From assembly GCA_046594705.1 (NCBI GenBank), contig JBKJRJ010000396.1:1-34924 (forward strand): 34,924 bases of DNA, in the 5' to 3' direction. Positions 1 through 26,402 of the stretch are shown one piece after another (position 1 is the first letter of the stretch; every line of letters begins with the position of its first letter). The notes under the pieces were generated by a model. The model saw only the letters and a list, made by a program, of their open reading frames with translations, was not told where the DNA came from and ran no database searches. The translations under genes and the position numbers were made by a program. The DNA comes from Vicinamibacterales bacterium. GTDB taxonomy: Bacteria > Acidobacteriota > Vicinamibacteria > Vicinamibacterales > 2-12-FULL-66-21.

Positions 1-1214
1 AGCATGCCGTCCCTGACGACCTTGTCGTAGAGCGCCGTGCCCGGGTAGGGGACCGCCGGATAGAAGTTCGCGAAGTCAGGATTGAGCTCGATCGCGTATT
101 CGATGGTGTGCTCGATGGTCGCGGGCGTCTCGCCGGGGTAGCCGAGGATGAAGAACGCAAAGGACCGGATCCCGGCCTCGCGCATGTTGTTGAGCGCGGC
201 CTGGATCTTCACCCGCTCGAGCCTCTTCACCATGTCCTTGCGGATTTCCTCGGACTCGGTCTCGATGCCCATCGCCAGCATCCAGCAGCCGGACTTGCGC
301 AGGCGGTGCACGAACGCGGGATCGGTGAGGTTGTCGGCGCGGGCGTTGCCGAACCACTGGATCGGCAGGTTCCTGGCAATCAGCTCGTCGCAGAACGCCG
401 TGAAGGTCTTGACGTTGAGCGTGACGGTGTCGCCCCAGAGGTAGAAGAAGTCGACACCGAACTCGCGGTAGCTGCGTTCGATCTCGTCAACCAGCGCCTT
501 CGGGCTGCGCTCGCGGAATTTATGCCCCTGGTGGATCGGCGCGACGCAGAAATCGCACGAATACGGGCAGCCGCGGCTGGTCTCGACGATGACATACGGC
601 CGATTCACGAGCGGCAGCGAGTACAACGACCGCGGCACGAGGTCCCACGCCGGATACGGCATCGTGGCAAACCCCGCGTATGACCCTTTCGCCGTGTGCG
701 CGACGATGGTGCCGGCTCGGCGCCAGGTGAGGCTCGGAACCGCGTGCAGGTGATCGATCGAATCCAGCAGCGCGAGTTCCAGCGCGCCGTCCTCGGGCTC
801 GCCGACGAACATGCCATCGACGTCCGGCGCGCGCAGCATCGACGCCTGCGGGGTGGTGGAGGCGTGCGGCCCGAAGCAGAACATCGGCGCGCCGAAACGC
901 TTCTTGAGTTTCGCGATTTCGACGACGTCCACGTCGAGCGTAGGGGTGGTGCTGGGGAAGAGGATGAGCGTGGGCCTGAAGCCCTCGCGATCGAGCCGCC
1001 CGATCAGGTCGTCCACGCTTTTCCGCTCGGCGGTGAGATCGACCAGGCGGACAGCGCAGCCGGCGTCGCGGAGCAGTGACGCGAGCAGCGCGAGTGTGTA
1101 GGGAGGCTTGGTCGTGCCCAGCACTTCCTCGCGCTCCTGGCAGCGCCCCTGGCGCGTAAAGGCGATGCCGTTGACGAGCGGCGGGTTGACGAGGAGGGTG
1201 CGCTGGCCGATCAC
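1..1214 (-). CDS. B12-binding-domain radical SAM enzyme (class B type), C-terminus beyond the window edge
   Basis: Absent from the ORF track because it has no in-window stop. Hand translation from GTG (1214-1212) gives VIGQRTLLVNPPLVNGIAFTRQGRC...LILFPSTTPTLDVDVVEIAKLKKRFGAPMFCFGPHAS...YVIVETSRGCPYSCDFCVAP...MGIETESEEIRKDMVKR...FFILGYPGET. This shows an N-terminal B12-binding-like domain followed by the CxxxCxxC cluster motif (CPYSCDFC). The GTGA start overlaps the stop of the upstream gene at 1211-1214. Confidence 0.8.
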   Translation of the reverse strand, partial: MIGQRTLLVNPPLVNGIAFTRQGRCQEREEVLGTTKPPYTLALLASLLRDAGCAVRLVDLTAERKSVDDLIGRLDREGFRPTLILFPSTTPTLDVDVVEIAKLKKRFGAPMFCFGPHASTTPQASMLRAPDVDGMFVGEPEDGALELALLDSIDHLHAVPSLTWRRAGTIVAHTAKGSYAGFATMPYPAWDLVPRSLYSLPLVNRPYVIVETSRGCPYSCDFCVAPIHQGHKFRERSPKALVDEIERSYREFGVDFFYLWGDTVTLNVKTFTAFCDELIARNLPIQWFGNARADNLTDPAFVHRLRKSGCWMLAMGIETESEEIRKDMVKRLERVKIQAALNNMREAGIRSFAFFILGYPGETPATIEHTIEYAIELNPDFANFYPAVPYPGTALYDKVVRDGM

Positions 1215-2440
1215 GTGTGCACGACCGTCACGGGAATGGCGCGGCGCCGCGGCAGGTCGGCGGTGGCGACGGCCGGCACGGGCGAGAGTTCGACTTTGCA
1301 GCACCGCCGGCACACCGGGAAGATGCCGTGTTCGAGCAGGCGACGCCGCAGCTCGACGTAACGTTCGCCGTTCCAGACCTGCTCGAGCGTGGACTCCGTG
1401 AGGTCGCCGACTTCGACCCGGATGAACGGGCAGAACACGACCTTGCCGGAAAACGACACGCGCGCGTGCAGGAAGGGATAGAGGCAGCGGCCCTCCAGCT
1501 TCGTCCCGGGCGTGTAGTAGCTGTCCATCAGCTGGGTGTGCACCTTGGGGCGGAAGTCGAACAGGATGTTGCGGTCCTTGCACTTCTGCGCCAGCGCCGT
1601 GACCTTCCGGCGCACCTGCTCCACGTCCAGTCCCGGATCCCGGGTGACGAACGTGGCGATCACGGAGGGATCGGTCGCGCCGATCATCTTCACCGTCTCG
1701 GCCACTTCCTCCGGCGTGCTGAACATCAGGTGGTTCAGGCCGATGGCGTCCACCCCGAGCTGTTCCGCCACGTCGACCATCTGGTCGAGTGCCTCGAGGC
1801 TCTCGTGCGCGACGGTGGTGTTGATGCTCACGCGCAGCGGTGCGCCCTTGCGTTTGGCCGCGCTCTGCAGGCGGCGGAGCCCTTCCGTGGTCCGCTCGAA
1901 GGTGCCCTGCAGCCCGCGCGCCGCGTCGTGCAGTTCTTTCGGGCCGTCCACCGACACGCTGATGTGTTTGAGGAAGCCCCTGGCCGCGAGCTCGGCCAGC
2001 GCCTCGGCGCGTTCTTCCGTGATGATCGTGCCGTTGGTGGTGAGATAACCGGCCGCGTAGCCCTTCTCGCGGAAGAGATCGAGCACGGACATGATGTCCT
2101 TGCGCATGAAGATCTCGCCGCCGGTCAGGCTGATCTGGAAGTCCTTCTGCGCGGGGAACGCGTTCGACAAGGCCTCGAGCGTCAGCTCCTGCCGCCATTC
2201 CCCTTCGAGGTTGAGCAGGTCGCCCACGTAGCAGAACTCGCAGTGCAGGTTGCACCGCATCGTGGCTTCGTAGACCGCGCCCATCGGCAGGCGGTCGGCG
2301 CGGCCGGTGGCCTCTTTGAGGAAGCGCTGGATGCGTCCCTCGTAGCGATGCCGGCGGAACCGCGCCCACGCGTGCCGGGCCAGCGGCATCGACCGGGCCG
2401 TTGTCTTCAGGCGCTCGCGCAGTTTACGAACCAGGACCAT
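1211..2440 (-). CDS. radical SAM enzyme with reduced SPASM/twitch-type C-terminal domain
   Basis: 409 aa ORF. CNLHCEFC is the CxxxCxxC motif. The C-terminus has C-x12-G-x4-C (CLYPFLHARVSFSGKVVFC) followed by CRRCC. ATG at 2440 is preceded by GGCGGA and overlaps the stop of the upstream gene by 17 nt. Confidence 0.85.
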   Translation of the reverse strand: MVLVRKLRERLKTTARSMPLARHAWARFRRHRYEGRIQRFLKEATGRADRLPMGAVYEATMRCNLHCEFCYVGDLLNLEGEWRQELTLEALSNAFPAQKDFQISLTGGEIFMRKDIMSVLDLFREKGYAAGYLTTNGTIITEERAEALAELAARGFLKHISVSVDGPKELHDAARGLQGTFERTTEGLRRLQSAAKRKGAPLRVSINTTVAHESLEALDQMVDVAEQLGVDAIGLNHLMFSTPEEVAETVKMIGATDPSVIATFVTRDPGLDVEQVRRKVTALAQKCKDRNILFDFRPKVHTQLMDSYYTPGTKLEGRCLYPFLHARVSFSGKVVFCPFIRVEVGDLTESTLEQVWNGERYVELRRRLLEHGIFPVCRRCCKVELSPVPAVATADLPRRRAIPVTVVHT

Positions 2441-4208
2441 CTATCCGCCAGATTTCCACGACCGGACCGGGGCGCTCGAGCGTCGCCGCGATCCGGGCAT
2501 CGCTGTTGTGCAGGAAGGGCTCAGCCGCGGGGGTCTTGTCGCCGGCGGCGTGTGAATACGGTGAAAACACGGCAATACGCCGGCCCTTTCCGGCCAGGGC
2601 CGTCAGGAGCGTCATCATTGCTGGGGCCGCGTCATTGTACCGTTTCAAGACCAGGAACGCCACGTGTTCCCGCCGGAGCGCGGCGAGCGGATCGGCAACG
2701 CCGAGCTGTTCATACGGCAGGTAGAGCTTGTCGACGTCCATGCCCCGGCCCAGATAGATCAGGCGGTAAGCGGGGGCGGGATACGGGTCGCGCGCGATCT
2801 GCAGCCGGGTCTTGGTCGGCAGCTCGCGCCCCGAGCGGGCCACCGCTTCTTCCAGCACAGCGGCCGTTGGCTCCAGCGGCACCGAGTACGGCTGGGTCAG
2901 GATGGTGGCCCCCGACGGGATGTGGCTGTGGATGTAGTGGAGTGCCAGCGTGCGCGTGTCGGTCTGTCGGATGAAGGCGCCGGTCCGCAGGCACTCGAGC
3001 CCCGCGACCGCAAATGCCGTGACGAACAGGACCTGGGCCGCGAGGCGCTGCCGCTGCCACAGCCACGCCACCGCGATGGCGGCGAGGATCGCCATAAACG
3101 GGGCGAGCGGCACGAGGTAGCGGCTGGCCGGAAAGGTGCCGGCGATAAAGAGCAGGAACGGTACCGCGAAGGCGAGCAGCCAGGACGCGCGAAGCGGATC
3201 CTTCCGGAGGGCGATCACGAGTCCGGCCAGGCCCAGCAGCGCCGAGGGCAGGCCCACCGTGTCGAACAGCAGCAGCGTCGCGTAGCGCGCGGCGCTGGCC
3301 ACGTAGCCGAGACGCTCGACCGCCCGGTCGACCACGATCTGCCGGTTGGCGGCGATGTCGCGCAGCGCCGTGCCGGGCTCCACCAGGAGGAAGGGAGAGA
3401 GCAGAAAGAACACCGCCGCGCTCACCGCCGCCGCCATCGCCACGCGCCGGACCACGTCGCGTCCGTCGCGGGCTCCGCGCGCCGCCGACCAGGCCAGCGG
3501 GAGGGCCAGGAAGATGGCGTAATAGTGCGTGGAGAACGCCGCGCCGGTGATCGCCGCGGCGCAGAGTAGTGGTCCTTCCGGCTGAAGGCGGAAACTCCGG
3601 ACTGCCCCCTCAGGCCCTCCACCGACCTTGTCCCAGAGCCGCGCATACGCCAGGTACGCCAGCATGATCAGGAACGTCACCGGCACGTCGTGCTTCACGT
3701 AGTGGGAGTTCAGCACGTGCAGCGGCGCGACCGCCAGCAGCAGGGCGGCCAGCACACCCACGCGCGGCGACCACAGGCGCGACCCGAGGATTCCGGTGGC
3801 CACGACCGTTCCGGCGCCGAGCAGCGCCGTCAGCAGCCGTCCCGCCACGAAGACGCGCGTCGGATCGAGAAAGAACTCCCGCTGGAACGCACCGAACGAC
3901 GCCACCGACCGGGTGGCCACCGCGGCAAGAGCGGTGATGCCCTGCCAGGCGAACAGCGCGTAGAAATAGAACGTCGGGTAGAGGAAGTTGTGCGGATTGA
4001 AGTCCCATTTCGCAAAGGCCAGCGTGCGCGACATGATGGCCACTTCGTCGGGGTTGTAGACCGCCGGCAGGCCGTAACGCAGCCCGATCAGCCGCAGCGC
4101 CAGCGCCACGGCGAATATCAGCCACAGACCAACACGGAACGACACGGATCTTCTCTGTGTTTGTCGGTGTTGGTCCGTGGCGGAAGGGCCGTGGTTGTCT
4201 GTGGCCAT
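2424..4208 (-). CDS. GT-C fold membrane glycosyltransferase (GT39/ArnT/PMT_2-like) with a C-terminal soluble domain
   Basis: 594 aa. Many hydrophobic spans. The acidic motif YNPDE lies in the first predicted external loop after TM1, as in ArnT/PMT-type enzymes. A soluble tail of about 170 aa follows. A TAATG 1-nt overlap links it to the upstream flippase gene. Confidence 0.75.
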   Translation of the reverse strand: MATDNHGPSATDQHRQTQRRSVSFRVGLWLIFAVALALRLIGLRYGLPAVYNPDEVAIMSRTLAFAKWDFNPHNFLYPTFYFYALFAWQGITALAAVATRSVASFGAFQREFFLDPTRVFVAGRLLTALLGAGTVVATGILGSRLWSPRVGVLAALLLAVAPLHVLNSHYVKHDVPVTFLIMLAYLAYARLWDKVGGGPEGAVRSFRLQPEGPLLCAAAITGAAFSTHYYAIFLALPLAWSAARGARDGRDVVRRVAMAAAVSAAVFFLLSPFLLVEPGTALRDIAANRQIVVDRAVERLGYVASAARYATLLLFDTVGLPSALLGLAGLVIALRKDPLRASWLLAFAVPFLLFIAGTFPASRYLVPLAPFMAILAAIAVAWLWQRQRLAAQVLFVTAFAVAGLECLRTGAFIRQTDTRTLALHYIHSHIPSGATILTQPYSVPLEPTAAVLEEAVARSGRELPTKTRLQIARDPYPAPAYRLIYLGRGMDVDKLYLPYEQLGVADPLAALRREHVAFLVLKRYNDAAPAMMTLLTALAGKGRRIAVFSPYSHAAGDKTPAAEPFLHNSDARIAATLERPGPVVEIWRIDGPGS

Positions 4209-5794
4209 TACTCCGGCCTTCCGAAGTCGGTGGCGACGATTTCGCCGGCCCGCTCAGTACTATCGGGCGCGGCCGCAGTGGTCGCGACCGGCGCGCTGCG
4301 GCGGCGGATGGACCCCAGGCGGCGCAGTTCGTCGGCGTGGAAAAAGCGCGTCACCACCAGCAGGCCGCCAAACACCACGATCACGGTGATGCCGCGGAGG
4401 ACGAGGTCGGGCAACGGCGCGATGGTGGAACGAGGATCGACCGACAGCTCGATGGAGGGCACCAGCCGCGCCGCGATGTACGCCGCGAGCCCCGCCAGGC
4501 AGACCCGGACGATCCGGCCCCACTCGTACGCGATCGGGTAGCAACGCTGCGACAAGACGTAGCCCAGCGCTGCCTGCACCGCGTAGGCGGCGCCGTTGGC
4601 CCACGCCGCACCCACGATCCCGTAGCGGGGGATCAGCAGGAGATTCAATCCGATGTTGGTCGTCGCCGCGGTGATCGTCGCGAGCGGATAGTACTGCGTG
4701 CGTTTCGTGATGTTCAGGCCGATCGAGGTCAGCAGGTAGACGCCCTGGAGGAAGACTCCGATCGCCGTCCAGGTGATGACGGTGGCGACGTCGTTCCAGC
4801 GCGGGTCGTCGGGCGCCAGGAGGCGCCCGTGGGTCATCGCCTCGGCGGCCTGACGGCCGATCGCCGACAGACCGGCCGTCAGCAGCGCGAGCACCGCGAT
4901 CCCATACGTCGTCACGGTGCGGAACACCCGGGGCGCGTCGGGCTCGCGAATGGCGGCGTAGTAGAACGGCGCCCATGCCGATTCGAACGCGCTGAGGAAC
5001 AGCTTCTGCGTCAAGCCGAACGACACCGCCATCGAGTAGATCCCGACAGTCTGCAGGGTGCCGTAGATGGTGAGCAGGAACTTGTCGCCGACCGCGATGA
5101 CCTGCTGCGCCGCGGCATGGGGCACGCGCGGCAGCCCGAAGGCCAGCGCGTCCCGCAGCACCGTGGCGGAAAACATCGACCGGATGAGCGGCGCAAACCA
5201 GCGCGCCAGGAGCGACAGCATGACCAGGGTGACGACGATGTCCGCGAGAAACAAGCCCGTCACGCCGAGGCCGAGCGACATCACGAACACCAGGCGGAGC
5301 GCGATCGTCAGCGCCGCGCGCACCAGCGTCATCAGGCTGAACGTCACTGTCCGCCGTTCCATCCGGAGCACGTGGAAGGGGATGAAGGTGAAGCCGATGC
5401 CGAACGTGTTCAGCAGCATCAGCCGCAGGGCGGCCGTGTGGTGCTGGCTGCCGAGGAACAGCTCCCCCAGCCGCGGCGCCGCCAGCATCAGGATGGTCAC
5501 GAAGGCACCGTTGATGGCCAGCAGGAAGAAGAAGATCGTGGAGGCCAGCCGGCGCCGCGCCGCGTCGTCCGGGCAGTCGTAGAACAACCGCATGAACGAG
5601 CCATCGAGCCCGAACCGGAAAACGATCTTGGCGATCACTTCCATCGCGCCGAGCACGCCGATGACGCCGTAATCCTCGGCGTTGAAATAGGTGACGTAGA
5701 CGCCGAGCAGGAGGAAGTTGACGATCGAGACCGCGACGTCGCCGAGTCCGTAGACGGTGACGTTCTTCGAGAGCTCGCGGATTTTCAGGAACAC
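4208..5794 (-). CDS. Wzx-like oligosaccharide/polysaccharide flippase (MOP superfamily)
   Basis: 528 aa polytopic protein with the typical Wzx-like N-terminus (LSKNVTVYGLGDV...) and many TM spans. The start codon is GTG at 5794-5792, since the track M is a GTG. It has a hydrophilic C-terminal extension. Confidence 0.8.
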   Translation of the reverse strand: MFLKIRELSKNVTVYGLGDVAVSIVNFLLLGVYVTYFNAEDYGVIGVLGAMEVIAKIVFRFGLDGSFMRLFYDCPDDAARRRLASTIFFFLLAINGAFVTILMLAAPRLGELFLGSQHHTAALRLMLLNTFGIGFTFIPFHVLRMERRTVTFSLMTLVRAALTIALRLVFVMSLGLGVTGLFLADIVVTLVMLSLLARWFAPLIRSMFSATVLRDALAFGLPRVPHAAAQQVIAVGDKFLLTIYGTLQTVGIYSMAVSFGLTQKLFLSAFESAWAPFYYAAIREPDAPRVFRTVTTYGIAVLALLTAGLSAIGRQAAEAMTHGRLLAPDDPRWNDVATVITWTAIGVFLQGVYLLTSIGLNITKRTQYYPLATITAATTNIGLNLLLIPRYGIVGAAWANGAAYAVQAALGYVLSQRCYPIAYEWGRIVRVCLAGLAAYIAARLVPSIELSVDPRSTIAPLPDLVLRGITVIVVFGGLLVVTRFFHADELRRLGSIRRRSAPVATTAAAPDSTERAGEIVATDFGRPE

Positions 5795-5835
5795 GAGCGG
5801 GGGGTCCTGACGGGGTCACTCGGCAATGTCGTGGG

Positions 5836-6549
5836 TCAGCCTTGCGGCTTGCGGAAGGTCAGCAGGTTCAGGAAGCACCACCCGGGCACGGGCAGCCATC
5901 GCGTCAGCGCGCGGTGCAGCGGCGCGAGCGCCCGCGGATGTCGGCGCACGAGGTGCGTGAGGACCGGAACCGTCGGGAAGATGCCGTGGCGCCCGACCAG
6001 CGAGAACCCGGCCCGCCGCCCGAGCTGCAGGTACTCGGCGACCGGTCGATCCCCGGGATGCTTGTACTCGGAGGCGGTGCGGATCAACCGCCCGCGCAGC
6101 AGGAAGTGAATGCGGGACTGCAGGTGCGCGAGGTTCGGCACCGACACCAGCAGTTCGCCGCCGGGCCGCAACACGCGAAAGAGCTCGGCCAGTGCCCGCG
6201 GCTGTTCCGCGTAGGCCAGGTGCTCCAGCACATCGAGACAGAGCGTGCGGTCGAAGGATCCATCGGGGAAGGGCAGCGCCGTCACCGACCCGAGCGTGAC
6301 CCGCGCCGACGAATAGTTCGCGTCAACGCCCGTGATGTCGAGACGGCCGGCATACTCCTCCACCAGCACGCCTTCGCCGCATCCGGCATCCAGCACGCGC
6401 GACGCCGCCGGCAGCGCGTTCAGATAGCGGCGGACCGCATCGAGCTTGGCGAGGTAGGTCGGGTAATAGTCCCAGGAAGGATCGAGCGTGCGGTGATAGT
6501 CGCCGCGCGCCGCGTATTCGCCCTGGCGAACCATCTCGGGCGTGGGCAT
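5836..6549 (-). CDS. class I SAM-dependent methyltransferase
   Basis: 237 aa. Motif I is VLDAGCGEGVL. Downstream are LCLDVLEHL and LRPGGELLVSVPN, typical of Methyltransf_11/23-type enzymes. ATG at 6549. Confidence 0.85.
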   Translation of the reverse strand: MPTPEMVRQGEYAARGDYHRTLDPSWDYYPTYLAKLDAVRRYLNALPAASRVLDAGCGEGVLVEEYAGRLDITGVDANYSSARVTLGSVTALPFPDGSFDRTLCLDVLEHLAYAEQPRALAELFRVLRPGGELLVSVPNLAHLQSRIHFLLRGRLIRTASEYKHPGDRPVAEYLQLGRRAGFSLVGRHGIFPTVPVLTHLVRRHPRALAPLHRALTRWLPVPGWCFLNLLTFRKPQG

Positions 6550-6564
6550 TGAGGGCCGATTGTA

Positions 6565-6665
6565 CTAGGCCTTGGGCCTTTGGCCTTGGGCTTTGGGCTT
6601 TAGGCTTTAGGGAGCTGGTGGGTTTCAGGGCGCCCAAAGCCCAAAGCCCAAAGACTAAAGCCTAG
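6565..6665. repeat. long imperfect inverted repeat built from tandem heptamers (GGCYTTN x6 on the left, CCCAAAG-type x4 on the right)
   Basis: Left arm 6565-6597 is ctaggccttgggcctttggccttgggctttggg. Right arm 6633-6665 is cccaaagcccaaagcccaaagactaaagcctag. Hand alignment of the 33 positions gives 27 Watson-Crick pairs, 3 G-U pairs and 3 mismatches on the minus-strand RNA. The loop is 35 nt. Tandem heptamers span 6568-6609 and 6633-6660. The right arm contains the TAG stop (6662-6664) of the upstream gene. Confidence 0.85.
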
Positions 6666-7384
6666 ATTCCAGGCCCGCCGCCGCGGCCGCCGGTGCCGGG
6701 GGGACGGATGATCGGCTGGTACGGATTCGGGACGCCCCCGGGAACCTGCTGCGGCGGGACGGCGCCCGGACGCGGGAGCGTCAGCGGCGAGGTCTGACCG
6801 GTCACCGCCGGCTGTCCAGGCTGCGTCATCTGCGGCATCTGGGGCATCTGCATCTGCGGCATCTGGCCGGGCTGCTGCGGCGGCATGCCCGGGAACTGCC
6901 CGACCACGGGGTTTCCCTGCTGCAGCGGCATCACGACGTTGATCGGCTCGTCGCTCTCGTCGATCGGCTGCGGCGGCCGCTGGAAGGTCGGCGTCGGCCC
7001 CGAATTGCCGGCCGTCACCGCGGGGGCGCGGCTCGTCGGCATGATCGTGACCCGATCGTAGAAGGCCGCATTGGCCATGGGCACCGGCCGCGGGGCCGCG
7101 ATATATCCGCTCGCGGTGCGCAGGAGGATGTCGAGCGCGTCGCGCTCCGACGCGTTGATCAACTGCAGTGTGACTGACGGCCCGTTCATCTTGTCGGCAT
7201 TGACGATCTTCGTCTGGCCGACGCGCGCCCATTCCTGCAGGATCTGCCGCAGGGGCACGTTGTCGGCCATGATGGTCACCCGCCCGTCCTGCATCGTCAA
7301 TGTGAGCTCGCCGGCGGAGGCCGGCGCGGCAAGGCCGCCGGCCACGGCCGCGGCAAACGCGCAGCGAAGAAGGGTGTTTTTCAT
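6662..7384 (-). CDS. secreted protein: signal peptide, STN-like (secretin/TonB N-terminal) domain, S/T/P linker, P/Q/M-rich low-complexity tail
   Basis: Start re-called to ATG at 7384, with GGGAG 6 nt upstream. The product is 240 aa. MKNTLLRCAFAAAVAGGLAAPASA|GE looks like a Sec signal peptide. VTIMADNVPLRQILQEWARVGQTKIV...VTLQLINASERDALDILLRTASGY matches the STN pattern by eye. The tail reads GMPPQQPGQMPQMQMPQMPQMTQPGQP...GGRGGGPGI. Confidence 0.7.
   Translation of the reverse strand: MKNTLLRCAFAAAVAGGLAAPASAGELTLTMQDGRVTIMADNVPLRQILQEWARVGQTKIVNADKMNGPSVTLQLINASERDALDILLRTASGYIAAPRPVPMANAAFYDRVTIMPTSRAPAVTAGNSGPTPTFQRPPQPIDESDEPINVVMPLQQGNPVVGQFPGMPPQQPGQMPQMQMPQMPQMTQPGQPAVTGQTSPLTLPRPGAVPPQQVPGGVPNPYQPIIRPPGTGGRGGGPGI
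6827..6865 (-). repeat. in-frame imperfect tandem repeat (catctg units) encoding the (MPQ/MQ)n stretch
   Basis: catctg occurs at 6827, 6836, 6845, 6851 and 6860 on the plus strand. On the minus strand this reads cag atg ccg cag atg cag atg ccc cag atg ccg cag atg. Confidence 0.8.
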
Positions 7385-7392
7385 AGGGATCT

Positions 7393-7450
7393 CCCGCTTC
7401 AAAGTATACGCCGGTTCAGACGCCCGGAAGCGGGGGACAGTCGGCGTCTG
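7393..7450 (-). promoter_or_regulatory. candidate interleaved (H-type pseudoknot-like or alternative) 8-bp stems in the 99-nt spacer, touching the Shine-Dalgarno of the STN-protein gene
   Basis: Stem A pairs 7393-7400 (cccgcttc) with 7427-7434 (gaagcggg). Stem B pairs 7417-7424 (cagacgcc) with 7443-7450 (ggcgtctg). The arm order on the strand is A, B, A-prime, B-prime. On the mRNA the last arm, GAAGCGGG, runs into GGAG 6 nt before the AUG. Confidence 0.35.
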
Positions 7451-7483
7451 GCTGAGCCGACCCGCGGAGCATCCCACCGGCCG

Positions 7484-9390: not shown

Positions 9391-9406
9391 CGTGATGGTT
9401 CCCCCT

Positions 9407-17374: not shown

Positions 17375-17396
17375 CACGGCGCGGAACTCGCGGGAC

Positions 17397-19498: not shown

Positions 19499-20222
19499 GC
19501 TTGTGTTGGCCCCGGATGACCAGCGAGTACCACAGCTTCATGACGTCGATCGCCGTGCGCACCAGCCGCCGGTAGTTGAAGAACTGCGACTTGCCAAACG
19601 CACGGTGATAGTGGTGCACGGGCACCTCGGCGATCCGGAAGCCGCCGTCGGTGATCTTCTTCATCATCTCCAGACAGATGACGCCGCTGTTTTTCTCCAG
19701 ATGCACCGTGTCGAAAATCGACCGGCGCATCATCCGGAAATCGCAATCCACATCGCGGACTGTCAGGCCGAACAGCAGCTTGACCGTGTGATGGTAGATC
19801 CGTCCGATCACGATGCGGTGGAGCGGGTCGGAGCGGCTGATCTTGTAGCCGTTCACCAGGTCCACATCGTCGCCGAAGCGGTTCCAGAGCACTTCCATTT
19901 CGGCGGGATCGTATTGCGCGTCGCCGTCGGTGTAGAACACCAGCTCGCGCGTGGCGCTGGCGAACCCCGTGCGCAAGGCGCCGCCATAGCCGCGGTTCTG
20001 CGCGTGGTGGACGATGCGGACCTCAGGGTAGGTGCCCGCCAGTTCATCGAGGATCTCGGCGGTGTTGTCCTGGCTGCCGTCGTTCACCACGATGACTTCG
20101 TGGTCCGGCGTCAGCTTCCGTGCCGTGCGCAAGGCCGTGATCACGAGGCTCGCGATGGTCCCGCTGTCGTTGTACGCGGGAAAGAAAATGCTCAGACCCG
20201 TCGCGGGTCCCTGCTTGGACAT
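19488..20222 (-). CDS. GT2 family glycosyltransferase, polyprenyl-phosphate sugar synthase-like (ArnC/DPM1 class, no C-terminal TM)
   Basis: 244 aa. LSIFFPAYNDSG, VIVVNDGSQDNT, YTDGDAQY (DxD) and RNRGYGGALRTG are present. Confidence 0.8.
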   Translation of the reverse strand: MSKQGPATGLSIFFPAYNDSGTIASLVITALRTARKLTPDHEVIVVNDGSQDNTAEILDELAGTYPEVRIVHHAQNRGYGGALRTGFASATRELVFYTDGDAQYDPAEMEVLWNRFGDDVDLVNGYKISRSDPLHRIVIGRIYHHTVKLLFGLTVRDVDCDFRMMRRSIFDTVHLEKNSGVICLEMMKKITDGGFRIAEVPVHHYHRAFGKSQFFNYRRLVRTAIDVMKLWYSLVIRGQHKHAA

Positions 20223-20236
20223 GGAAGAGCTAAATC

Positions 20237-21484
20237 TTATCGGGTGAGTGAGTTGAAGGCAAGAGCGCGATCGTAGGCGGCCTCGAATCGCGCCGCCGCC
20301 GCTCCCCAGCCGAAGCGGGCCTCGACCAGCGCACGCCCGCCGCGGCCGAGCGCCGCTCCGCGGACCGGATCGCGCAGCAGGGCGCCGAGCGCCGCGGCCA
20401 GCGCGGCCGGGTCGCGCTCGGGCACGATCACGCCGCTCTCCCCGTGCTCGACGACGGCGGTGATGCCGCCCGCGGGCGTGCTGACGAGCGGGGTGCCCGA
20501 GGCCAGCGCTTCGAGCACCGTGTTCGGCAGGCCGTCCACGTTCCCGCTGTCGTCACGGACCGAGGGGACGACGGCCGCGTCGGCCGCCGCAAACCACTCG
20601 GCGACCTCGTCCTGCGGCAGGTCGCCGAGGAAATGGACTCGCGACCCGACATTCGCGGCACTGGCCCGTGCGCGCAGCTCCGCGGCGAGGTCGCCGCCGC
20701 CCGCAATCGCCAGATGCGCCGGCGCCAGGCCGGCGCCGGCGTCGATCAGTGCGAGCGCCTCGATCACGTACTCGAAACCCTTCTTCCGCACGAGACGACC
20801 GGCGGTGAAGATGAGCGGGGCGCCCGGCGCCAGCGCGATCCGCGCCCGGACCGCGTCGCGCGTGCCGGCCGCGGGCGTAAACCGCGCGGTGTCGACGCCG
20901 TAGGGCACGACCTCGAGTCGCTCGCGCACCGCCCCGAGCCCCACGGCGCGCTCCGCGAGGTCCTGACTGCACGCCGTCACGAATCCGGCGCGCTGGAATA
21001 CCCGTCGCGCCGCCAGGCCCGCGACAGCGGTGCGCTCGGCGACATACACGTCCGAGCCGTGCAGGCTCACCACCAGCGGCAACGCCGGCCGCGCGGCCGC
21101 CGCCATCACGCCACCCGGAACGACCCAATGACCATGCATGACGGTCGCCCGCTTCTTCTGCGCTACCCGCAGCGCCTTGAACCAGCCGGCCGTCATCGCC
21201 AGCGGCGCCGCCAGCCAGGCGGCCGTCTTCAGCTCGACGTCGGCGCGAAGACCCGCCGCGTAGCCGAACACGTTCAGCGCCGGCACCGGAGCGTAGTGAA
21301 AAAAATGAAAAAAGACGCCGTCCTCGACCTTGGCGCGGGTGATCCGCGGGTGCCACGGCGCCACGATATGCACCTCGTGGCCGCGCGCCGCCACCTGCTT
21401 GGCAATCGGCTCCATGAAGGTGCCGACCGAATCCCCGGGAAACCTGGGGTACGACGTCGTCACCATCACCACGACGTGGCGCAT
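20237..21484 (-). CDS. GT4 family (GT-B) glycosyltransferase
   Basis: I prefer ATG at 21484 (MRHVVVMVTTSYP), 1 nt after the upstream stop, because the track start at 21508 is a TTG. The product is 415 aa. The EX7E-type region is DGLPNTVLEALASGTPLVST. Confidence 0.8.
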   Translation of the reverse strand: MRHVVVMVTTSYPRFPGDSVGTFMEPIAKQVAARGHEVHIVAPWHPRITRAKVEDGVFFHFFHYAPVPALNVFGYAAGLRADVELKTAAWLAAPLAMTAGWFKALRVAQKKRATVMHGHWVVPGGVMAAAARPALPLVVSLHGSDVYVAERTAVAGLAARRVFQRAGFVTACSQDLAERAVGLGAVRERLEVVPYGVDTARFTPAAGTRDAVRARIALAPGAPLIFTAGRLVRKKGFEYVIEALALIDAGAGLAPAHLAIAGGGDLAAELRARASAANVGSRVHFLGDLPQDEVAEWFAAADAAVVPSVRDDSGNVDGLPNTVLEALASGTPLVSTPAGGITAVVEHGESGVIVPERDPAALAAALGALLRDPVRGAALGRGGRALVEARFGWGAAAARFEAAYDRALAFNSLTR

Positions 21485-21485
21485 G

Positions 21486-22196
21486 TCAGGAGCGGGAGCG
21501 GAAGACAAGGCGCCACGGCATGATCAGCGACTCGAGCAGGACGTGCGAGGACAGCTTGGACTGACCGAGCCGGCGCTCGACGAAAATGATCGGCACCTCG
21601 CCGATGCGGAAGCCGCGCTGCTTGGCCTCGTACATCATTTCGACCAGGAAGGCGTAGCCATCCGAGACCATCGCGGCCACCGGCAGGCGCGCGAGCGCCT
21701 CGCGCCGCCAGCAGCGATAGCCGCTGGTGCAGTCGCTCGCGGCCAGGTTCGTCACCAACCGGATGTAGCGGTTGCCGAAGGCGCTGAGCAGGATGCGATG
21801 AATCGGCCAGTTGACGACGCTGACGCCGCCATTCATGTAGCGGGAGCCGATCACGAGATCGTGCGTGGCGGCGGCGCCCACCAGATGCGGCAGGTAGGTC
21901 GGATCGTGCGACAGATCACAGTCCATCTGGCAGATGAAGTCGGCGCGACCTTCCGTGACGGCGCGCATGAGGCCGTCCACGTACGAGCGGCCGAGACCGC
22001 GGGGTCCGGTCCGGTGTATCACCTCGACCCGTCCGGCGTGGTCGAGCGCCAACTGGTCCGCCACCGCGCCGGTCCCGTCGGGTGAGCCGTCGTCCACCAC
22101 GAGCAGCCGGAAGCCCTCGTGCGCGAGCACGCCGGCCGCCAGCAGCGGCAGATTGTCGCGTTCGTTATACGTGGGCGTGACGACGAGTACATTCAT
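21486..22196 (-). CDS. GT2 polyprenol-phosphate mannosyltransferase-like (Ppm1/DPM1 catalytic-domain type)
   Basis: 236 aa. MNVLVVTPTYNERDNL, LLVVDDGSPDGT, QMDCDLSHDP, LVIGSRY and TSGYRCW are present. An ATGA overlap with the upstream GT-C gene lies at 22193-22196. Confidence 0.8.
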   Translation of the reverse strand: MNVLVVTPTYNERDNLPLLAAGVLAHEGFRLLVVDDGSPDGTGAVADQLALDHAGRVEVIHRTGPRGLGRSYVDGLMRAVTEGRADFICQMDCDLSHDPTYLPHLVGAAATHDLVIGSRYMNGGVSVVNWPIHRILLSAFGNRYIRLVTNLAASDCTSGYRCWRREALARLPVAAMVSDGYAFLVEMMYEAKQRGFRIGEVPIIFVERRLGQSKLSSHVLLESLIMPWRLVFRSRS

Positions 22197-23482
22197 TTAT
22201 TTCGGAGACCGGCGAGCAGCGCGGCCGACACGATCAGGGCGGGATCGATCACGGGGATGCGAAACCGCTCCTGGGGAAAAAACACCAGGCCAGCCGCGAC
22301 CGTAGCGGCGGCCATCAGCCAGAGAGCGGCGGGACCGCCCCGCCGGCCGCTCACGCGCCAGCGCCACGCGCCCACGATCGCCGCCGGCAGAATCAGCAGG
22401 TACGAGAGTACGGACGCCACGCGATAACGCTCCGAGTGTAGCGCATACGACGGGCCGAACGGCACGACGGTATAGAACGCTTTGCGTGCCATGAGCCCGA
22501 GCCACGCGGCGGGCTCGCGGCGCATCCAGGCCAGCGCGTCGCGGTAGTAGAGCGGCTCGAGTTGTTCGGGCGTGAGATTCGGGTGGGCGCCGCGGAACGT
22601 CAGTTCCGCGCGCTTGATGTCGAGATTCGCCGCCAGGTCGCCATCGCCGCGCGCGAGCGGGTGGTTGCCGGTCCAGAACGTGACGCCGCCCTCCGAGGCG
22701 ACGGCAATCCAGCGTCCATAGACCCGGTGGTTGCGCATCGTCCAGGGTGCGACGCAGAGGATGGCGACGAGGACGAACACGCCGGCCGCCAGTGGGCGGC
22801 GGCGCCAGAAGAACCACAGCGCCGCGAGCGGTACGAAGAAGATCATCGCCGGGCGGGTGAGGATAGCCACCCCGGTGAGGACGGCACCGGCGAGGACGCG
22901 GGAAGGCGGAGGCTCGAGACTGGAGTCTGGCACCGGGTCGGGGGCTCCGCCCAGTTCCACTCTCCACCCTCCAGCCTCCTGCAGCACGAGCGCCGCGGCG
23001 AGGGCGAGCGTGGAGAAGAGCGTCTCGCTCAGCACGTACGACGGCATCCAGATGAGCGGCGGGTAGCAGGCGGCGATCGCGGCGGCGGCGACGGCGGCGC
23101 GCGGCCCGGCGGCGCGCCCCGCTATGGCGGCGATCAGCCAGATCCCGATCGCGCTGACCACCGCCTGCGCCAGCTGCACGCGGCGCGGCGCCTGATGCAC
23201 CGGGAGCGGTTCAATCACGGCCGCGAGAAAGAGGGGGTAGCCGGGGGCGCGGCCGAACTGCTGCGCCGTGCCGGGCGACGGCTCGTCGGCGGGATAGCGG
23301 AACCCTTCACCGCGCGCGACGCTGCGGGCCAGCGCCAGGTACTCACGTTCGTCGTGCGTCAGCGGCTGTCCCACCCAGTAGAACAGCGCGAACGCGACGC
23401 GGAGCGCCAGGCCGGCCAGCACGCACGCGATCACCCAGCGCCGGCAGGTCGGCGGGTGGTGCGTCCGCCGCGGCGGTATCAC
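22193..23482 (-). CDS. GT-C fold membrane glycosyltransferase (ArnT/PMT_2/GT39-83-like)
   Basis: Start re-called to GTG at 23482, in a GTGA overlap with the upstream stop at 23479-23481. The product is 429 aa. TM1 is followed by QPLTHDEREYLALARSVARGEGF, a DE..Y loop motif typical of ArnT-like enzymes. The protein is polytopic. Confidence 0.75.
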   Translation of the reverse strand: MIPPRRTHHPPTCRRWVIACVLAGLALRVAFALFYWVGQPLTHDEREYLALARSVARGEGFRYPADEPSPGTAQQFGRAPGYPLFLAAVIEPLPVHQAPRRVQLAQAVVSAIGIWLIAAIAGRAAGPRAAVAAAAIAACYPPLIWMPSYVLSETLFSTLALAAALVLQEAGGWRVELGGAPDPVPDSSLEPPPSRVLAGAVLTGVAILTRPAMIFFVPLAALWFFWRRRPLAAGVFVLVAILCVAPWTMRNHRVYGRWIAVASEGGVTFWTGNHPLARGDGDLAANLDIKRAELTFRGAHPNLTPEQLEPLYYRDALAWMRREPAAWLGLMARKAFYTVVPFGPSYALHSERYRVASVLSYLLILPAAIVGAWRWRVSGRRGGPAALWLMAAATVAAGLVFFPQERFRIPVIDPALIVSAALLAGLRNK

Positions 23483-24339: not shown

Positions 24340-24345
24340 GGGCCG

Positions 24346-25356
24346 TCAGTGCTCCCAGCGATCAGCGCGATCGTTCGCGCGCGTGACGACGGGGCGATCC
24401 CGTTCGGGCTCGCGCGGCGGCAACTCGAGCCCGCGTACGCGGTAGAGCAGGTCCTCGAGCAGCTTGCGGTTGCCCGCGTTGACGTCCGCCAGCAGCCCGA
24501 TCACCAGCACCTGGAACCCCACAATCATCAGGATGCCCGACGCGTTCAGCGACGCGATGTGGCGGAAGGCCTCGCCCTGGAAGTAGTAGTAGACGAAGCG
24601 CAGGAAGCCGAGCAACCCGGCGCCGGCGATCAGCAGCCCGAGATACGTGAACACCTTGAGCGGCTCGTACATCACGTAGATCCGGACGATGGTCGCGCCC
24701 GAGCGCTTGATATAGGAAAACATGCTGTCGAACAGCCGCGACTCCCGCGTGCGGAGGTTCACCGTGATCGGCACGTGCGCGATCGCCATCCGCTTCTTGC
24801 CGGCCTGGATGATCGATTCGAGCGTGTAGGAGAATTCCGACACGATCGTCATCCGCAGCGCCGCCTCGCGGGTATAGGCGCGGAAGCCGCTCGTGGTGTC
24901 GGGCACCGTGGTGTTGGACACCTGCCGCACCACCCAGCTGCCGAGCCGCTGCAGCTGGCGCTTGCGCCACGACATGTGCCGCAGGCCCTGGATGTTCCGA
25001 TCGCCGATGCAGATGTCGGCCTCGCCCCGCAGCAGCGGCGCCAGCAGCTTCGCGATGTCCTGGCCGGCGTACTGATTGTCGGCGTCGGTGTTGACGATGA
25101 AATCGGCGCCCGCCTTGAGGCCGGCGTCGATCCCGGCGGTGAACGCCGCCGCCAGTCCCTTGTTGCGGCGCAGCCGGACGATGTGATCGACGCCGCAGGC
25201 GCGGGCGACGTCCGACGTGCCGTCACGTGAGCCGTCGTCGATCACCAGCACCTCGATGACATCGACGCCGGCGATCTGCTTCGGCAGATCGGCGAGCGTC
25301 GCCGGCAGCGTCTGCGCCTCGTTGAGGCACGGGATCTGGATAATCAGCTTTTTCAC
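24346..25356 (-). CDS. GT2 polyprenyl-phosphate glycosyltransferase with two C-terminal TM helices (second GtrB/ArnC-like paralog)
   Basis: 336 aa. The first codon is GTG (25356-25354), in a GTGA overlap with the upstream stop. IIQIPCLNEAQTL, VLVIDDGSRDGT and NTDADNQY are present. The C-terminal helices are VFTYLGLLIAGAGLLGFL and ILMIVGFQVLVIGLLA. Confidence 0.8.
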   Translation of the reverse strand: MKKLIIQIPCLNEAQTLPATLADLPKQIAGVDVIEVLVIDDGSRDGTSDVARACGVDHIVRLRRNKGLAAAFTAGIDAGLKAGADFIVNTDADNQYAGQDIAKLLAPLLRGEADICIGDRNIQGLRHMSWRKRQLQRLGSWVVRQVSNTTVPDTTSGFRAYTREAALRMTIVSEFSYTLESIIQAGKKRMAIAHVPITVNLRTRESRLFDSMFSYIKRSGATIVRIYVMYEPLKVFTYLGLLIAGAGLLGFLRFVYYYFQGEAFRHIASLNASGILMIVGFQVLVIGLLADVNAGNRKLLEDLLYRVRGLELPPREPERDRPVVTRANDRADRWEH

Positions 25357-26402
25357 GACACCAGCTTTTCGATCACGCCGTCCCAGGTGATGGTCCGCGC
25401 CCGCTCGTAGCCCGCGTCCCCCAACGACGCCGCGCGGGCCCGGTCGCGCGCCAGGAGATTGATGGCATCCGCGAACGCCTCAGCCTCCGGCGGCCGCACC
25501 AACCCGTTGACGCCGTCGAGCACGAACTCGTTCGGCCCTCCTGAATCGGTCGCCGTGACCACCGGCTTGCGGGACAGGAACGCTTCCAGCGTCACGTAGC
25601 CGAAGTCTTCGTCGTAGGGCGGGTAGAGGACGGCGAGCGCGTCGCGATACAGGGCGAGCAGCCGCTCGTCCTCGACCGCCCCGAGGAACTCGACCCGGTC
25701 GCTCACGCCGGCGTCCGCGGCCACGCGCTCGACGTTGGCGCGCTGCGTCCCGTCGCCGGCGACCACCAGCCTGATCGGTCTATCGACCCGAGTCATCGCC
25801 GACACCAGTAAATCCACCCGCTTGACCGATTCGATTCGCCCGACCGACAGCACGAAGTCGCCGTAGACGGGCCGCAACTCGCGGAGCCGCCCCGCCAGCT
25901 TCGGCGGATGGTAGAGCGCCTCGGCCGCGATGCCGTTGTACTTGCCGACGCGGGTGGCGGTGTTCCGGGCATTGGCAAACACGTGGCGGCACTCGCCCAG
26001 CATCTCGGTGTCCAGCCGCACCAGCGTGTCGCGCAGACCGACGTCCCCCTCGTGGTGCCCGAAGTCGCTATACGGCGTGCCGCAGAGCTCGTAGGCGGCG
26101 CGGTACTGGTGAATCAGCCACGCCACCTTGTTGGGATGGCGCACGAAATAGGTCGGGAACTTGGACGCGATCACGAGGTCGATGGACCGGCCGTTGCTCT
26201 CGCTCAGGTCAAGCAGCCGCCAGGCCGCCGCGTGCGGAAGGATTTCCTCCTTCGGATACCACTTGAACGGCACGCTCACCAGCTCGGTGTCATACCCCCG
26301 TTCCCGCAGCTCCCGGACCAGCTCCCGAACGTGCACTTCGGCCCCGCCGTGCACGAACGGCACCTGCGCCTCGCAGACGACGACCGTTCGAATAGGCGGC
26401 AT
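25353..26402 (-). CDS. GT4 family (GT-B) glycosyltransferase; first gene of the minus-strand operon
   Basis: 349 aa. VVVCEAQVPFVHGGAEVHV is the typical GT4 N-terminus. The C-terminal region is EDFGYVTLEAFLSRKPVVTATDSGGPNEFV. ATG at 26402 is followed upstream by a 173-nt lower-G+C intergenic region. Confidence 0.8.
   Translation of the reverse strand: MPPIRTVVVCEAQVPFVHGGAEVHVRELVRELRERGYDTELVSVPFKWYPKEEILPHAAAWRLLDLSESNGRSIDLVIASKFPTYFVRHPNKVAWLIHQYRAAYELCGTPYSDFGHHEGDVGLRDTLVRLDTEMLGECRHVFANARNTATRVGKYNGIAAEALYHPPKLAGRLRELRPVYGDFVLSVGRIESVKRVDLLVSAMTRVDRPIRLVVAGDGTQRANVERVAADAGVSDRVEFLGAVEDERLLALYRDALAVLYPPYDEDFGYVTLEAFLSRKPVVTATDSGGPNEFVLDGVNGLVRPPEAEAFADAINLLARDRARAASLGDAGYERARTITWDGVIEKLVS

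Follow-up and report, generated by a model that had tools for sequence, protein, structure and literature searches.

Background

The combination of a polyprenyl-phosphate-sugar synthase, a flippase and a glycosyltransferase of the GT-C class is well established, and its principle is known from the Gtr, Arn and Rgt systems as well as from the mycobacterial GT-C networks. In Rhizobium (RgtE with RgtA-D) and in Francisella (FlmF1/F2 with FlmK) polyprenyl-phosphate-sugar synthases feed GT-C enzymes which decorate the core or the lipid A of lipopolysaccharide (LPS). An undecaprenyl-phosphate-sugar synthase, a flippase and a periplasmic GT-C also make up the GtrA/GtrB/Gtr* systems of Shigella and Salmonella and a pentofuranose system of Citrobacter, which founds family GT136; for three-component systems of this kind, elaborated versions with several GT-Cs have been noted (PMC11127046). 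Here we analyse a locus resembling these systems in a stretch of 34,924 nt from a Vicinamibacterales bacterium (Acidobacteriota; contig JBKJRJ010000396.1), which as a whole is called the window in the following. The locus fills the left part of the window with 22 genes, numbered from G22 (first, at the right) to G1 (last, at the left edge), among them four putative lipid-sugar synthases and three GT-C enzymes.

Different from the Gtr and Citrobacter systems, four synthases and three GT-Cs stand here in one conserved block, a flippase of the GtrA or SMR type is absent from it, and cytoplasmic GT4 and GT9 enzymes as well as three radical SAM enzymes belong to the same array. With the Rhizobium and Francisella systems the locus shares, judged from established knowledge, that synthases feed several periplasmic GT-Cs and that cytoplasmic core glycosyltransferases are encoded nearby. 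However, it would use four distinct donors rather than one, it contains radical SAM enzymes and an MBOAT/SGNH pair, and the comparison is one of pathway logic. The locus was not described in the literature searched. New are the conserved 22-gene arrangement in an order of soil bacteria, the three radical SAM enzymes and an embedded N0-domain protein with a promoter of its own; since the principle is known, the advance would consist of a new pathway and perhaps of new sugars.

We propose, with a probability of roughly 0.6, that the locus encodes a composite pathway for one cell-envelope glycoconjugate, combining assembly at the cytoplasmic face with several rounds of glycosylation at the periplasmic face. 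Cytoplasmic enzymes of the GT-B type (the GT4 proteins G22 and G17, the GT9 protein G10 and the half-GT-B protein G9) would build a lipid-anchored glycan, and four GT2 enzymes would each join a different sugar to undecaprenyl phosphate. The resulting donors would be flipped, possibly by G4, the only candidate in the block, and the GT-C enzymes G19, G11 and G3 would transfer the sugars to the lipid-anchored glycan in the periplasm, which the MBOAT/SGNH pair (G12, G13) would then O-acylate. Unusual sugars would be made by the tailoring enzymes, that is, the short-chain dehydrogenases/reductases (SDRs) G8 and G15, the aminotransferase G14, the methyltransferase G5 and the radical SAM enzymes, the latter yielding oxidised, deoxygenated or C-methylated sugars. 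A multi-donor periplasmic decoration system had been suggested in an earlier note made from the sequence of this DNA; the GT2 and GT-C classes and the co-conservation of the genes support this idea, while the mechanism itself we infer. Other explanations are, in decreasing likelihood, protein O-glycosylation, a Wzx/Wzy-type polymer, a natural product and a modification of peptidoglycan.

Acidobacteria of subdivision 6 (Vicinamibacteria) belong to the dominant bacteria of soils and are poorly cultured, and to our knowledge almost nothing has been reported on their cell surface. Conservation of the locus throughout the order makes a role in forming a core surface structure of this group probable. 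Such a structure would bear on desiccation tolerance, aggregation, recognition by phages and predators, and soil carbon, and the locus supplies defined pairs of lipid-sugar synthase and GT-C that are open to testing.

An array of 22 co-directional genes

The window has a G+C content of 69%, and because of this the raw lists of open reading frames (ORFs) are dominated by shadow ORFs. According to the G+C content at the codon positions (GC3 frame analysis), exactly 22 genes from position 26402 to the left edge are credible, each of them on the minus strand, and every plus-strand ORF in this region shows the pattern GC1<GC2 of an antisense shadow. Since G1 runs off the left edge (its N-terminal 404 amino acids are in the window), the block is slightly longer than positions 1 to 26402. 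After choice of the start codons, neighbouring genes overlap by 4 nt (ATGA/GTGA) at 10 of the 21 junctions, and at eight others the overlap or gap does not exceed 22 nt (18 of 21 altogether); the three longer ones are G7-G6 (99 nt), G6-G5 (112 nt) and G5-G4 (41 nt).

The co-directional arrangement and the tight spacing had been seen before, and both are borne out here. The same holds for the gene content given in the earlier note (GT4, GT2, GT-C-like, GT9, Wzx, MBOAT plus SGNH, DegT, SDRs, a methyltransferase and radical SAM enzymes), since Pfam confirmed every one of these families; two genes, G9 and G6, had been left unnamed. The note had also pointed to the lack of an initiating phosphoglycosyltransferase and of Wzy, Wzz and Wza. 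Indeed, Pfam detected a Wzx-like protein (G4) but no Bac_transf, WecA-type, Wzy_C, Wzz or Poly_export domain among the 22 products, and the sole PF00953 match in the window is MraY of the division and cell wall (dcw) cluster to the right of the block. Rfam and tRNA scans found nothing.

GT-C enzymes and putative lipid-sugar synthases

The proposed pathway is carried by two groups of proteins, the first of which are the four GT2 enzymes:

24346..25356, minus strand: G21, GT2 of the polyprenyl-phosphate sugar synthase type, 336 amino acids, two C-terminal transmembrane (TM) helices
23479..24339, minus strand: G20, GT2 of the polyprenyl-phosphate sugar synthase type, 286 amino acids, C-terminal TM hairpin
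21486..22196, minus strand: G18, soluble DPMS-like GT2, 236 amino acids, 4-nt overlap with G19
19488..20222, minus strand: G16, soluble ArnC-like GT2, 244 amino acids

All four possess a DxD motif (DGD in G16, DCD in G18, DAD in G20 and in G21) and TSGFR-type motifs; their pairwise identity is 23–32%. TM prediction places two C-terminal helices each in G20 and G21 and none in G16 and G18, so that the two hairpins reported before are found again. Soluble members of the DPMS type exist, such as eukaryotic DPM1 and the catalytic domain of actinobacterial Ppm1. The profile comparison with PDB covered G18 and G21. For G18 the best solved relative is the Dol-P-Man synthase of P. furiosus (5mlz, E 7e-27, residues 1–230), and for G21 the same DPMS (E 4.5e-14), followed by ArnC and GtrB sll0501. 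In NCBIfam, G21 is closest to AglJ/PpgS (below cut-off), G20 to AglJ (138 bits, cut-off 325), then to PpgS and ArnC (all below cut-offs), and G16 to ArnC (89 bits, cut-off 529); the curated equivalog score of a characterised synthase is reached by none of the four. These profiles, together with the DxD motifs, support the placement of G16, G18, G20 and G21 in the DPMS/ArnC/GtrB-type class of polyprenyl-phosphate synthases, as had been proposed.

The second group are three polytopic membrane proteins:

22193..23482, minus strand: G19, small GT-C glycosyltransferase, 429 amino acids, about 8–11 TM segments
12375..14861, minus strand: G11, large GT-C glycosyltransferase, 828 amino acids, about 12 TM segments and a periplasmic C-terminal alpha/beta plus beta-sandwich domain
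2424..4208, minus strand: G3, GT-C (PMT/GT39-like) glycosyltransferase, 594 amino acids

By hydropathy G3 has about 9–11, G11 about 12 and G19 about 8 TM segments, within the 8–13 helices expected of GT-Cs, and the AlphaFold2 models of G11 and G19 are helix bundles in agreement with this. G3 passes the Pfam model PMT (32 bits, gathering cut-off 22.7), and its family profile matches yeast Pmt1 (6p25, E 0.005). G19 gives weak Pfam matches to PMT_2 and TMEM260 and is related to G3 by hhalign (probability 92.7, with the DE motifs in register). G11 reaches 21 bits with PMT_2, below the gathering cut-off, and its relatives carry the NCBI name GT39. A relationship between G11 and G3 was also looked for by profile comparison and was not significant.

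The sequence profiles of G11 and G19 matched no solved structure in PDB, and fold prediction was therefore needed for these two. Both were modelled with AlphaFold2 from alignments of database homologues (pLDDT 77 and pTM 0.76 for G11, pLDDT 78 and pTM 0.84 for G19). In Foldseek searches the top 24 structures for G11 are all GT-C proteins (STT3, PglB, AglB, ArnT, EmbB, AftA, ALG12, Pmt4; E down to 2e-5, probability 1.0), and so are the top 27 PDB matches for G19, including PimE and ALG3/9 (probability 1.0). Furthermore, acidic residues in the loop following TM1 are invariant among 12–39 homologues (D54/E55 in G3, D44/E45 in G19, E118/D125 in G11), and this loop is predicted to be the first periplasmic one. 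Judged by the Pfam match of G3 and by the predicted folds of G11 and G19, the three proteins are GT-C enzymes, and the earlier assignment thus withstood both the HMM and the structure searches. Adjacency to the GT2 genes makes a polyprenyl-phosphate-linked sugar the predicted donor. The model of G11 ends in a domain of about 260 residues, alpha/beta plus beta-sandwich, and this sandwich recalls the lectin-like C-terminus (a carbohydrate-binding module, CBM) of the Emb proteins.

G18 and G19 would form a pair of the Ppm1/Pmt type. Actinobacterial Ppm1/Pmt and the PPM/DPA-dependent GT-Cs of mycobacteria (PimE, Emb, Aft) are comparable in that G18 is DPMS/Ppm1-like and G3 and G19 are PMT-like. 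However, the identities are 10–17%, and the organism is an acidobacterium of the Gram-negative type.

Predicted cytoplasmic glycosyltransferases, sugar tailoring, acylation and flipping

The remaining enzymes, except for the radical SAM proteins, are the following:

25353..26402, minus strand: G22, GT4 glycosyltransferase, 349 amino acids, first gene of the array (Pfam Glycos_transf_1, 115 bits)
20237..21508, minus strand: G17, GT4, 423 amino acids (Pfam GT4 N- and C-terminal domains)
18479..19498, minus strand: G15, extended SDR, 339 amino acids (Pfam Epimerase/GDP_Man_Dehyd)
17397..18482, minus strand: G14, DegT-type pyridoxal-phosphate-dependent sugar aminotransferase, 361 amino acids (Pfam DegT, 366 bits)
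16292..17374, minus strand: G13, secreted protein of the SGNH/GDSL acyl-esterase type (weak Pfam Lipase_GDSL_2/ALGX) with an N-terminal TM segment or signal sequence
14861..16288, minus strand: G12, MBOAT (DltB/AlgI-type) membrane O-acyltransferase (Pfam MBOAT, 82 bits)
11209..12378, minus strand: G10, GT9, heptosyltransferase family (Pfam Glyco_transf_9, 114 bits)
9407..11212, minus strand: G9, 601 amino acids, uncharacterised N-terminal domain and C-terminal half-GT-B (Capsule_synth/surface-carbohydrate/2-epimerase-like)
8428..9390, minus strand: G8, extended SDR by Pfam (UXS/ArnA-C-terminal/LegB-like), 4-nt overlap with G7
5836..6549, minus strand: G5, class I SAM methyltransferase (Pfam Methyltransf_11/25/23)
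4208..5794, minus strand: G4, MOP-superfamily (Polysacc_synt/Wzx-like) flippase, about 12 TM segments

G9 matches Capsule_synth (Pfam, 26.9 bits, gathering cut-off 20) and, below the cut-offs, Epimerase_2 (27 bits) and TIGR04396 (50 bits); its profile matches UDP-GlcNAc 2-epimerases at E 1e-3. In comparison with an LPS core (waa) locus, the GT9 protein G10 stays below the equivalogs WaaF, WaaC and WaaQ (97, 90 and 84 bits, cut-offs 135, 185 and 170), and neither WaaA nor WaaL is found in the window. NCBIfam scores below cut-off were also obtained for G15 (dTDP-glucose 4,6-dehydratase as best match, 141 bits), G8 (LegB, 180 bits; UDP-4-keto-pentose/UDP-xylose synthase, 169 bits), G14 (PseC, 203 bits; ArnB, 181 bits) and G12 (DltB, 155 bits). 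In summary, all products stay below the equivalog cut-offs of characterised proteins, be they of O-antigen, exopolysaccharide (EPS), Arn or Waa type, and for this reason the locus is regarded as not belonging to a characterised pathway, in line with the first impression.

The closest parallel for one branch are the Arn pathway and Bordetella LgmABC. An SDR (G15, or G8 with its ArnA-C-terminal/UXS-like domain), the DegT protein G14, the ArnC-like G16 and the ArnT-like G11 can be put side by side with them, and in a distant relative (L164, see below) the genes for G16, G15, G14 and a G11-like protein are contiguous. G15, G14 and G16 would thus supply G11 in an Arn-like amino-sugar branch lacking the formyl steps, with G16 as the donor-loading step. 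In contrast to Arn, the scores are far below the equivalogs (ArnB 181 of 631, ArnC 89 of 529, ArnA 132 of 777 bits), no formyltransferase, deacetylase/deformylase or ArnE/F is found in the window, and G11 has a large beta-sandwich domain at its C-terminus which ArnT does not have. G15 also departs from the canonical SDRs, as NGVNK replaces YxxxK, the catalytic Tyr being changed to Asn; this is kept in the 59% identical orthologue of L164 (L164:7871-8878). By analogy to the Met-containing dehydratases of the PseB/CapE type, this replacement suggests a non-canonical chemistry.

Two other pathways were considered and rejected. Weak matches to HpnA/B/H/J/R, which might recall hopanoid synthesis, score far below cut-off and reflect superfamily membership only. 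The LegB-, PseC- and TIGR04396-like matches might recall nonulosonic acids, but neither a NeuB-type synthase nor a CMP-transferase is present.

G4 passes Polysacc_synt_3 (32 bits) and Polysacc_synt (30 bits) of Pfam above the gathering cut-offs and weakly resembles HfsF (54 bits) and matE (27 bits) of NCBIfam, both below cut-off. Its former label Wzx is justified as to the family, but it presumes an undecaprenyl-diphosphate-linked oligosaccharide as substrate, and neither a phosphoglycosyltransferase nor Wzy is present. Among the 22 products no GtrA (PF04138) or SMR protein was detected with Pfam. A MATE-family flippase has been described that moves the undecaprenyl-phosphate-pentose donor in place of GtrA (PMC11127046). 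By analogy to this precedent, and because a phosphoglycosyltransferase and Wzy are missing, G4 may instead flip polyprenyl-phosphate-sugar donors.

The flippase, together with the GT4s, the tailoring enzymes and the variable cassettes described below (G12/G13, G14–G16, G3), would also be typical of an ordinary Wzx/Wzy locus for O-antigen or EPS, in which the initiating, polymerase and export genes would lie elsewhere and the GT2/GT-C pairs would be side-chain modifiers of the seroconversion type. We consider this improbable. A phosphoglycosyltransferase, Wzy, Wzz, Wza and WaaL are found neither in the window nor in about 10 kb of the left extension in relatives; GT-C and GT2 proteins make up 7 of the 22 products, above an accessory share; and the core of the locus is syntenic across the whole order and partly beyond, whereas O-antigen loci are usually hypervariable.

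Radical SAM enzymes

Three genes code for radical SAM proteins:

7484..8431, minus strand: G7, radical SAM/SPASM enzyme, BtrN-like (Pfam Radical_SAM and SPASM)
1211..2440, minus strand: G2, radical SAM/SPASM enzyme (Pfam)
1..1214, minus strand: G1, B12-binding radical SAM enzyme (Pfam B12-binding and Radical_SAM)

The best solved relative of G7 is BtrN (4m7t, E 3e-17), followed at a distance by DesII (3e-3). BtrN is the radical SAM dehydrogenase of butirosin biosynthesis. For G1 the nearest solved relative is AprD4 (6fd2, E 1e-21), and in NCBIfam BchE (162 bits) and HpnJ (151 bits) score higher than AprD4, yet below their cut-offs. These similarities suggest sugar-tailoring roles for G7 and G1. 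Literature searches returned no report of BtrN-like or B12-dependent radical SAM enzymes in the context of an envelope glycan, in which the present locus places them. G7 and G8 are the best conserved proteins of the block (mean identity about 78–79% across relatives), and the homologue search for G7 retrieved only relatives with at least 83% identity and no distant gene context. An exact-sequence search for G2 among public assemblies gave no match. A database protein of 494 amino acids (P0360) unites domains of the SDR (Epimerase/GDP_Man_Dehyd) and Radical_SAM/SPASM types, either as a possible fusion of G8 with G7 or through an artefact of gene calling across the 4-nt overlap.

BtrN and AprD4 both come from aminoglycoside pathways, and DegT and SDR proteins are present as well, which would fit a cluster for a secreted or membrane glycolipid or an aminoglycoside-like natural product rather than for a structural polymer of the envelope. 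To this explanation we give very little credence. A 2-deoxy-scyllo-inosose synthase, a resistance gene and a regulator are all missing, G1 fits the BchE and HpnJ models better than AprD4, and the polyprenyl-phosphate GT2s, GT-Cs, GT9 and MBOAT/SGNH proteins are envelope machinery. Moreover, the locus is conserved by vertical descent at its place next to the dcw cluster.

Conservation within Vicinamibacterales and beyond

Homologues of G11 with 44–81% identity were found only in metagenome-assembled genomes of Vicinamibacterales. The gene order from G22 to G1 is kept across these loci, and for the counts given here 46 loci with full 10-kb flanks were used. G20, G19, G18, G17, G11, G10, G9, G8, G7, G5 and G4, plus G6, constitute the core; G17 and G10 each occur in 44 of 46 relatives, and G18 and G19 co-occur among the loci. 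Variable are the cassette G12+G13, which is always present or absent as a whole (19 of 46 loci), a mosaic of G14, G15 and G16, and G3, present in about 18 of 46 loci, a number that the ends of the loci partly restrict. From these patterns of presence and absence, no cassette could be assigned one-to-one to a given GT-C.

An exhaustive HMMER search with G11 yielded 451 representative clusters at E<=1e-30, including full-length relatives at 25–32% identity, at least one of which is labelled Acidobacteria. Four distant contexts with a G11-like gene (25–30% identical) were inspected; percentages are identities to the proteins of the window:

L161: G22 (47%), GT4, G11-like, G21 (60%), G20 (55%), KdsD/KpsF-like; thereafter LPG_synthase_TM (flippase-like), G19 (37%), DegT, G18 (42%), G17 (40%)
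L162: G11-like, G21 (60%), G19 (30%)
L163: Ugd, methyltransferase, G22 (41%), GT4, G11-like
L164: G16 (69%), G15 (59%), G14 (51%), G11-like, as one unit; 7 kb further G17 (49%), GT9 G10 (40%), Polysacc_synt flippase

Thus, orthologues of G10 and of G14–G22 are found beside distant genes for G11-type GT-Cs, and because it is kept in these contexts the association of GT4, GT2, GT-C, GT9 and DegT is old and functional rather than a local accident. In one further case (P0448) a gene call fuses DegT to a G11-like protein, which may be a fusion or an adjacency. Synteny, named earlier as a possible refutation of the proposal, shows the genes to be co-conserved throughout the order and in part beyond it. 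The radical SAM genes, G8, G9 and G6 were not found in the four distant contexts and for this reason look like additions specific to Vicinamibacterales.

The most likely acceptor of the periplasmic sugars is an LPS-core-type or other lipid-linked glycan, which is favoured by the GT9 protein, by the KdsD-like gene in L161 and by the weakly CBM-like C-terminus of G11. Several points weigh against the composite pathway or parts of it. The acceptor is not readable from the sequence, and the support is computational. All NCBIfam matches are far below the equivalog cut-offs, so that sugar specificities are not derivable. The window contains no small flippase of the GtrA or ArnE/F type and, besides lacking WaaA and WaaL, no lipid A genes. 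Although the lists of Foldseek matches are uniform, the TM-scores are low (0.2–0.5), and the resemblance of the C-terminus of G11 to a CBM51/BcsB-like sandwich is weak (E about 0.02–0.1). The nearest solved relatives of G2, that is, SkfB (1e-8), PqqE and anSME, modify peptides and not sugars, this resemblance being weak, too. Finally, none of the four distant contexts showed the radical SAM enzymes, G8 or G9, and these may belong to a branch of their own.

Predicted transcription units and the secreted protein G6

The earlier note had taken the block for a single operon of 22 genes, and this part of it has to be given up, because conserved, predicted promoters lie within the block upstream of G6 and of G5 and a hairpin or terminator follows G6. 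The elements concerned are:

26446..26454, minus strand: TGCTAGCAT, candidate extended -10 box, G22 promoter
7403..7409, minus strand: GTATACT, conserved -10 box, G6 promoter, 18 nt before the G6 ATG
6565..6665, minus strand: heptamer-repeat hairpin with 34-nt imperfect arms, directly 3' of the G6 stop codon
6559..6564, minus strand: TACAAT, conserved -10 box 9 nt before the G5 ATG, no Shine-Dalgarno sequence

The box in front of G6 reads GGCGTATACT, and GGGAG precedes the G6 ATG as Shine-Dalgarno sequence. Of 60 distinct regions downstream of G7 in relatives, 46 contain GTATA[AC]T, whereas its background frequency, taken over 2 Mb of loci, is 0.007 per 250 nt. For G5, 45 of 52 distinct relatives have TAnAAT upstream, with its end 5–13 nt from the start codon, and it was counted zero times upstream of G4, G7, G8, G9, G11, G12, G14, G17, G18 and G20. 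This position implies a G5-G1 transcript that is predicted to be leaderless or near-leaderless. The hairpin after G6 has a minimum free energy of -56.4 kcal/mol (z -4.1), and in relatives its place is taken by other hairpins made of repeats or by canonical intrinsic terminators. For G22 we tentatively suggest a promoter box of the form TGnTAnnAT, which recurs, for example as TGGTACCAT, in relatives whose G22 is separated from mraZ by nothing but a spacer. A generic scan for sigma-70 promoters and terminators gave counts at chance level; it missed these conserved -10-only promoters, which were found by comparing relatives. Therefore, at least three transcription units are predicted: G22-G7, G6 alone and G5-G1.

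The gene with a unit of its own codes for a product that has no Pfam match:

6662..7384, minus strand: G6, secreted protein with signal peptide, secretin-N0-like domain and a tail rich in Pro, Gln and Gly

The N0-like domain comprises about 95 residues, and a profile of 13 orthologues matches the N0 domain of the secretin PilQ (4ar0, E 1e-4). In the tail the motifs TAPRPG and PNPYQP are conserved. Orthologues of G6 are found in nearly all loci, with the N-domain present almost everywhere, and the promoter and terminator suggest that G6 is expressed separately and highly. One may speculate that it is a scaffold or a glycosylation target.

The latter would be expected if the locus served protein O-glycosylation, with PMT/GT39-like GT-Cs glycosylating secreted proteins in the way of actinobacterial Ppm1/Pmt and with the Pro-, Thr-, Ser- and Gln-rich G6 as the dedicated acceptor. 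The relationship of G3 to PMT and yeast Pmt1, the weak TMEM260 and PMT_2 matches of G19 and the closeness of G18, whose gene overlaps that of G19, to Dol-P-Man synthase all agree with this, as do the signal peptide of G6, its conserved Pro-rich tail with Thr and Ser beside Pro and its own conserved promoter inside the locus. On the other hand, GT-Cs of the PMT_2 type also include ArnT and many enzymes directed at glycans or lipids; the GT9, the two GT4s and the MOP flippase fit an oligosaccharide on a lipid and not the modification of a protein with a single sugar; the C-terminal domain of G11 is weakly carbohydrate-binding-like; and the four distant G11 contexts showed no homologue of G6. Protein O-glycosylation therefore seems unlikely to us, and the lipid-linked glycoconjugate is preferred.

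A bolder variant of the composite pathway, which we regard as doubtful, would have the glycoconjugate assembled largely outside the cytoplasm from four polyprenyl-phosphate sugars, in the manner of mycobacteria but in a diderm, with some of its sugars made by radical SAM chemistry of the aminoglycoside type (a BtrN-like dehydrogenase plus SDR, and a B12 radical SAM enzyme) and with G6 as protein acceptor or periplasmic scaffold. If true, such a four-donor system would produce a lineage-defining envelope glycoconjugate of the Vicinamibacterales.

Two further observations concern these regulatory elements. Intergenic hairpins with arms of tandem 7–9-nt repeats, in the window (CTTTGGG)n/(CCCAAAG)n at 6565-6665, also occur in L022, L024, L046, L084, L085, L097 and L151, with differing sequences and the same architecture and positions (after G7, after G6); they possibly represent a terminator typical of the lineage or an element similar to repetitive extragenic palindromes. 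Moreover, 12 of 58 relatives (L008, L021, L034, L037, L040, L041, L044, L049, L050, L067, L068, L080), though not the window, have TAnAAT a few nt before the start of the GT9 gene G10 and still within the end of G11, which suggests an additional leaderless promoter in some lineages.

Flanking regions

To the right of the block, on the plus strand from 26576, begins a dcw cluster with mraZ, rsmH, ftsL, ftsI, murE, murF and mraY (Pfam), and at least 17 of the loci have mraZ as their divergent neighbour. In combination with the MBOAT and SGNH genes, this raises the question of a role in peptidoglycan modification or cell division, as MBOAT plus SGNH is also the architecture of PatA/PatB, which O-acetylate peptidoglycan. 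We consider such a role highly improbable. Within one order, the position next to mraZ may simply reflect an inherited arrangement, another gene stands between mraZ and G22 in many relatives, none of the four distant G11 contexts adjoins dcw genes, and the MBOAT/SGNH cassette is restricted to 19 of the 46 loci.

The intervening gene is co-directional with the array, lies directly upstream of G22 and ends in ...GDVINFRHAT*, which resembles the C-terminus of YchF (L013, L016, L019, L022, L027, L030, L049, L051, L052, L064, L066, L076); in the window G22 faces mraZ directly. Upstream of the mraZ start (26576) there is a sigma-70-like promoter, TTGACA-17-TACTAT, with its -10 box at 26531-26536 (plus strand). 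Between this box and the start, three GTGGA repeats follow each other at a spacing of exactly 10 nt (26541-26565, plus strand); they resemble the MraZ operator repeats known from E. coli. The FtsI/PBP3 homologue of the cluster (28301-30394, plus strand) has a C-terminal PASTA domain (Pfam, 38 bits), a domain that is commoner in penicillin-binding proteins and kinases of Gram-positive bacteria.

On the other side, the co-directional array ends with G1 in those relatives whose loci were retrieved by G1, and the glycan region continues beyond the position of the left edge of the window. In L148, L098, L085 and L147 a second recurrent module is found about 1.5–10 kb downstream of G1. It consists of a convergent DPMS-like GT2, one or two PMT-type GT-Cs, methyltransferase(s), a GNAT protein, a polysaccharide deacetylase and a GT4, and by analogy its possible logic of acylation, loading, deacylation and transfer resembles ArnA/C/D/T or LgmABC. 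In L098 (4294-5079) genes for a Phd/YefM-like antitoxin and a PIN-domain toxin are inserted between G1 and the downstream GT2 and GT-C genes, which marks the junction downstream of G1 as an insertion site.

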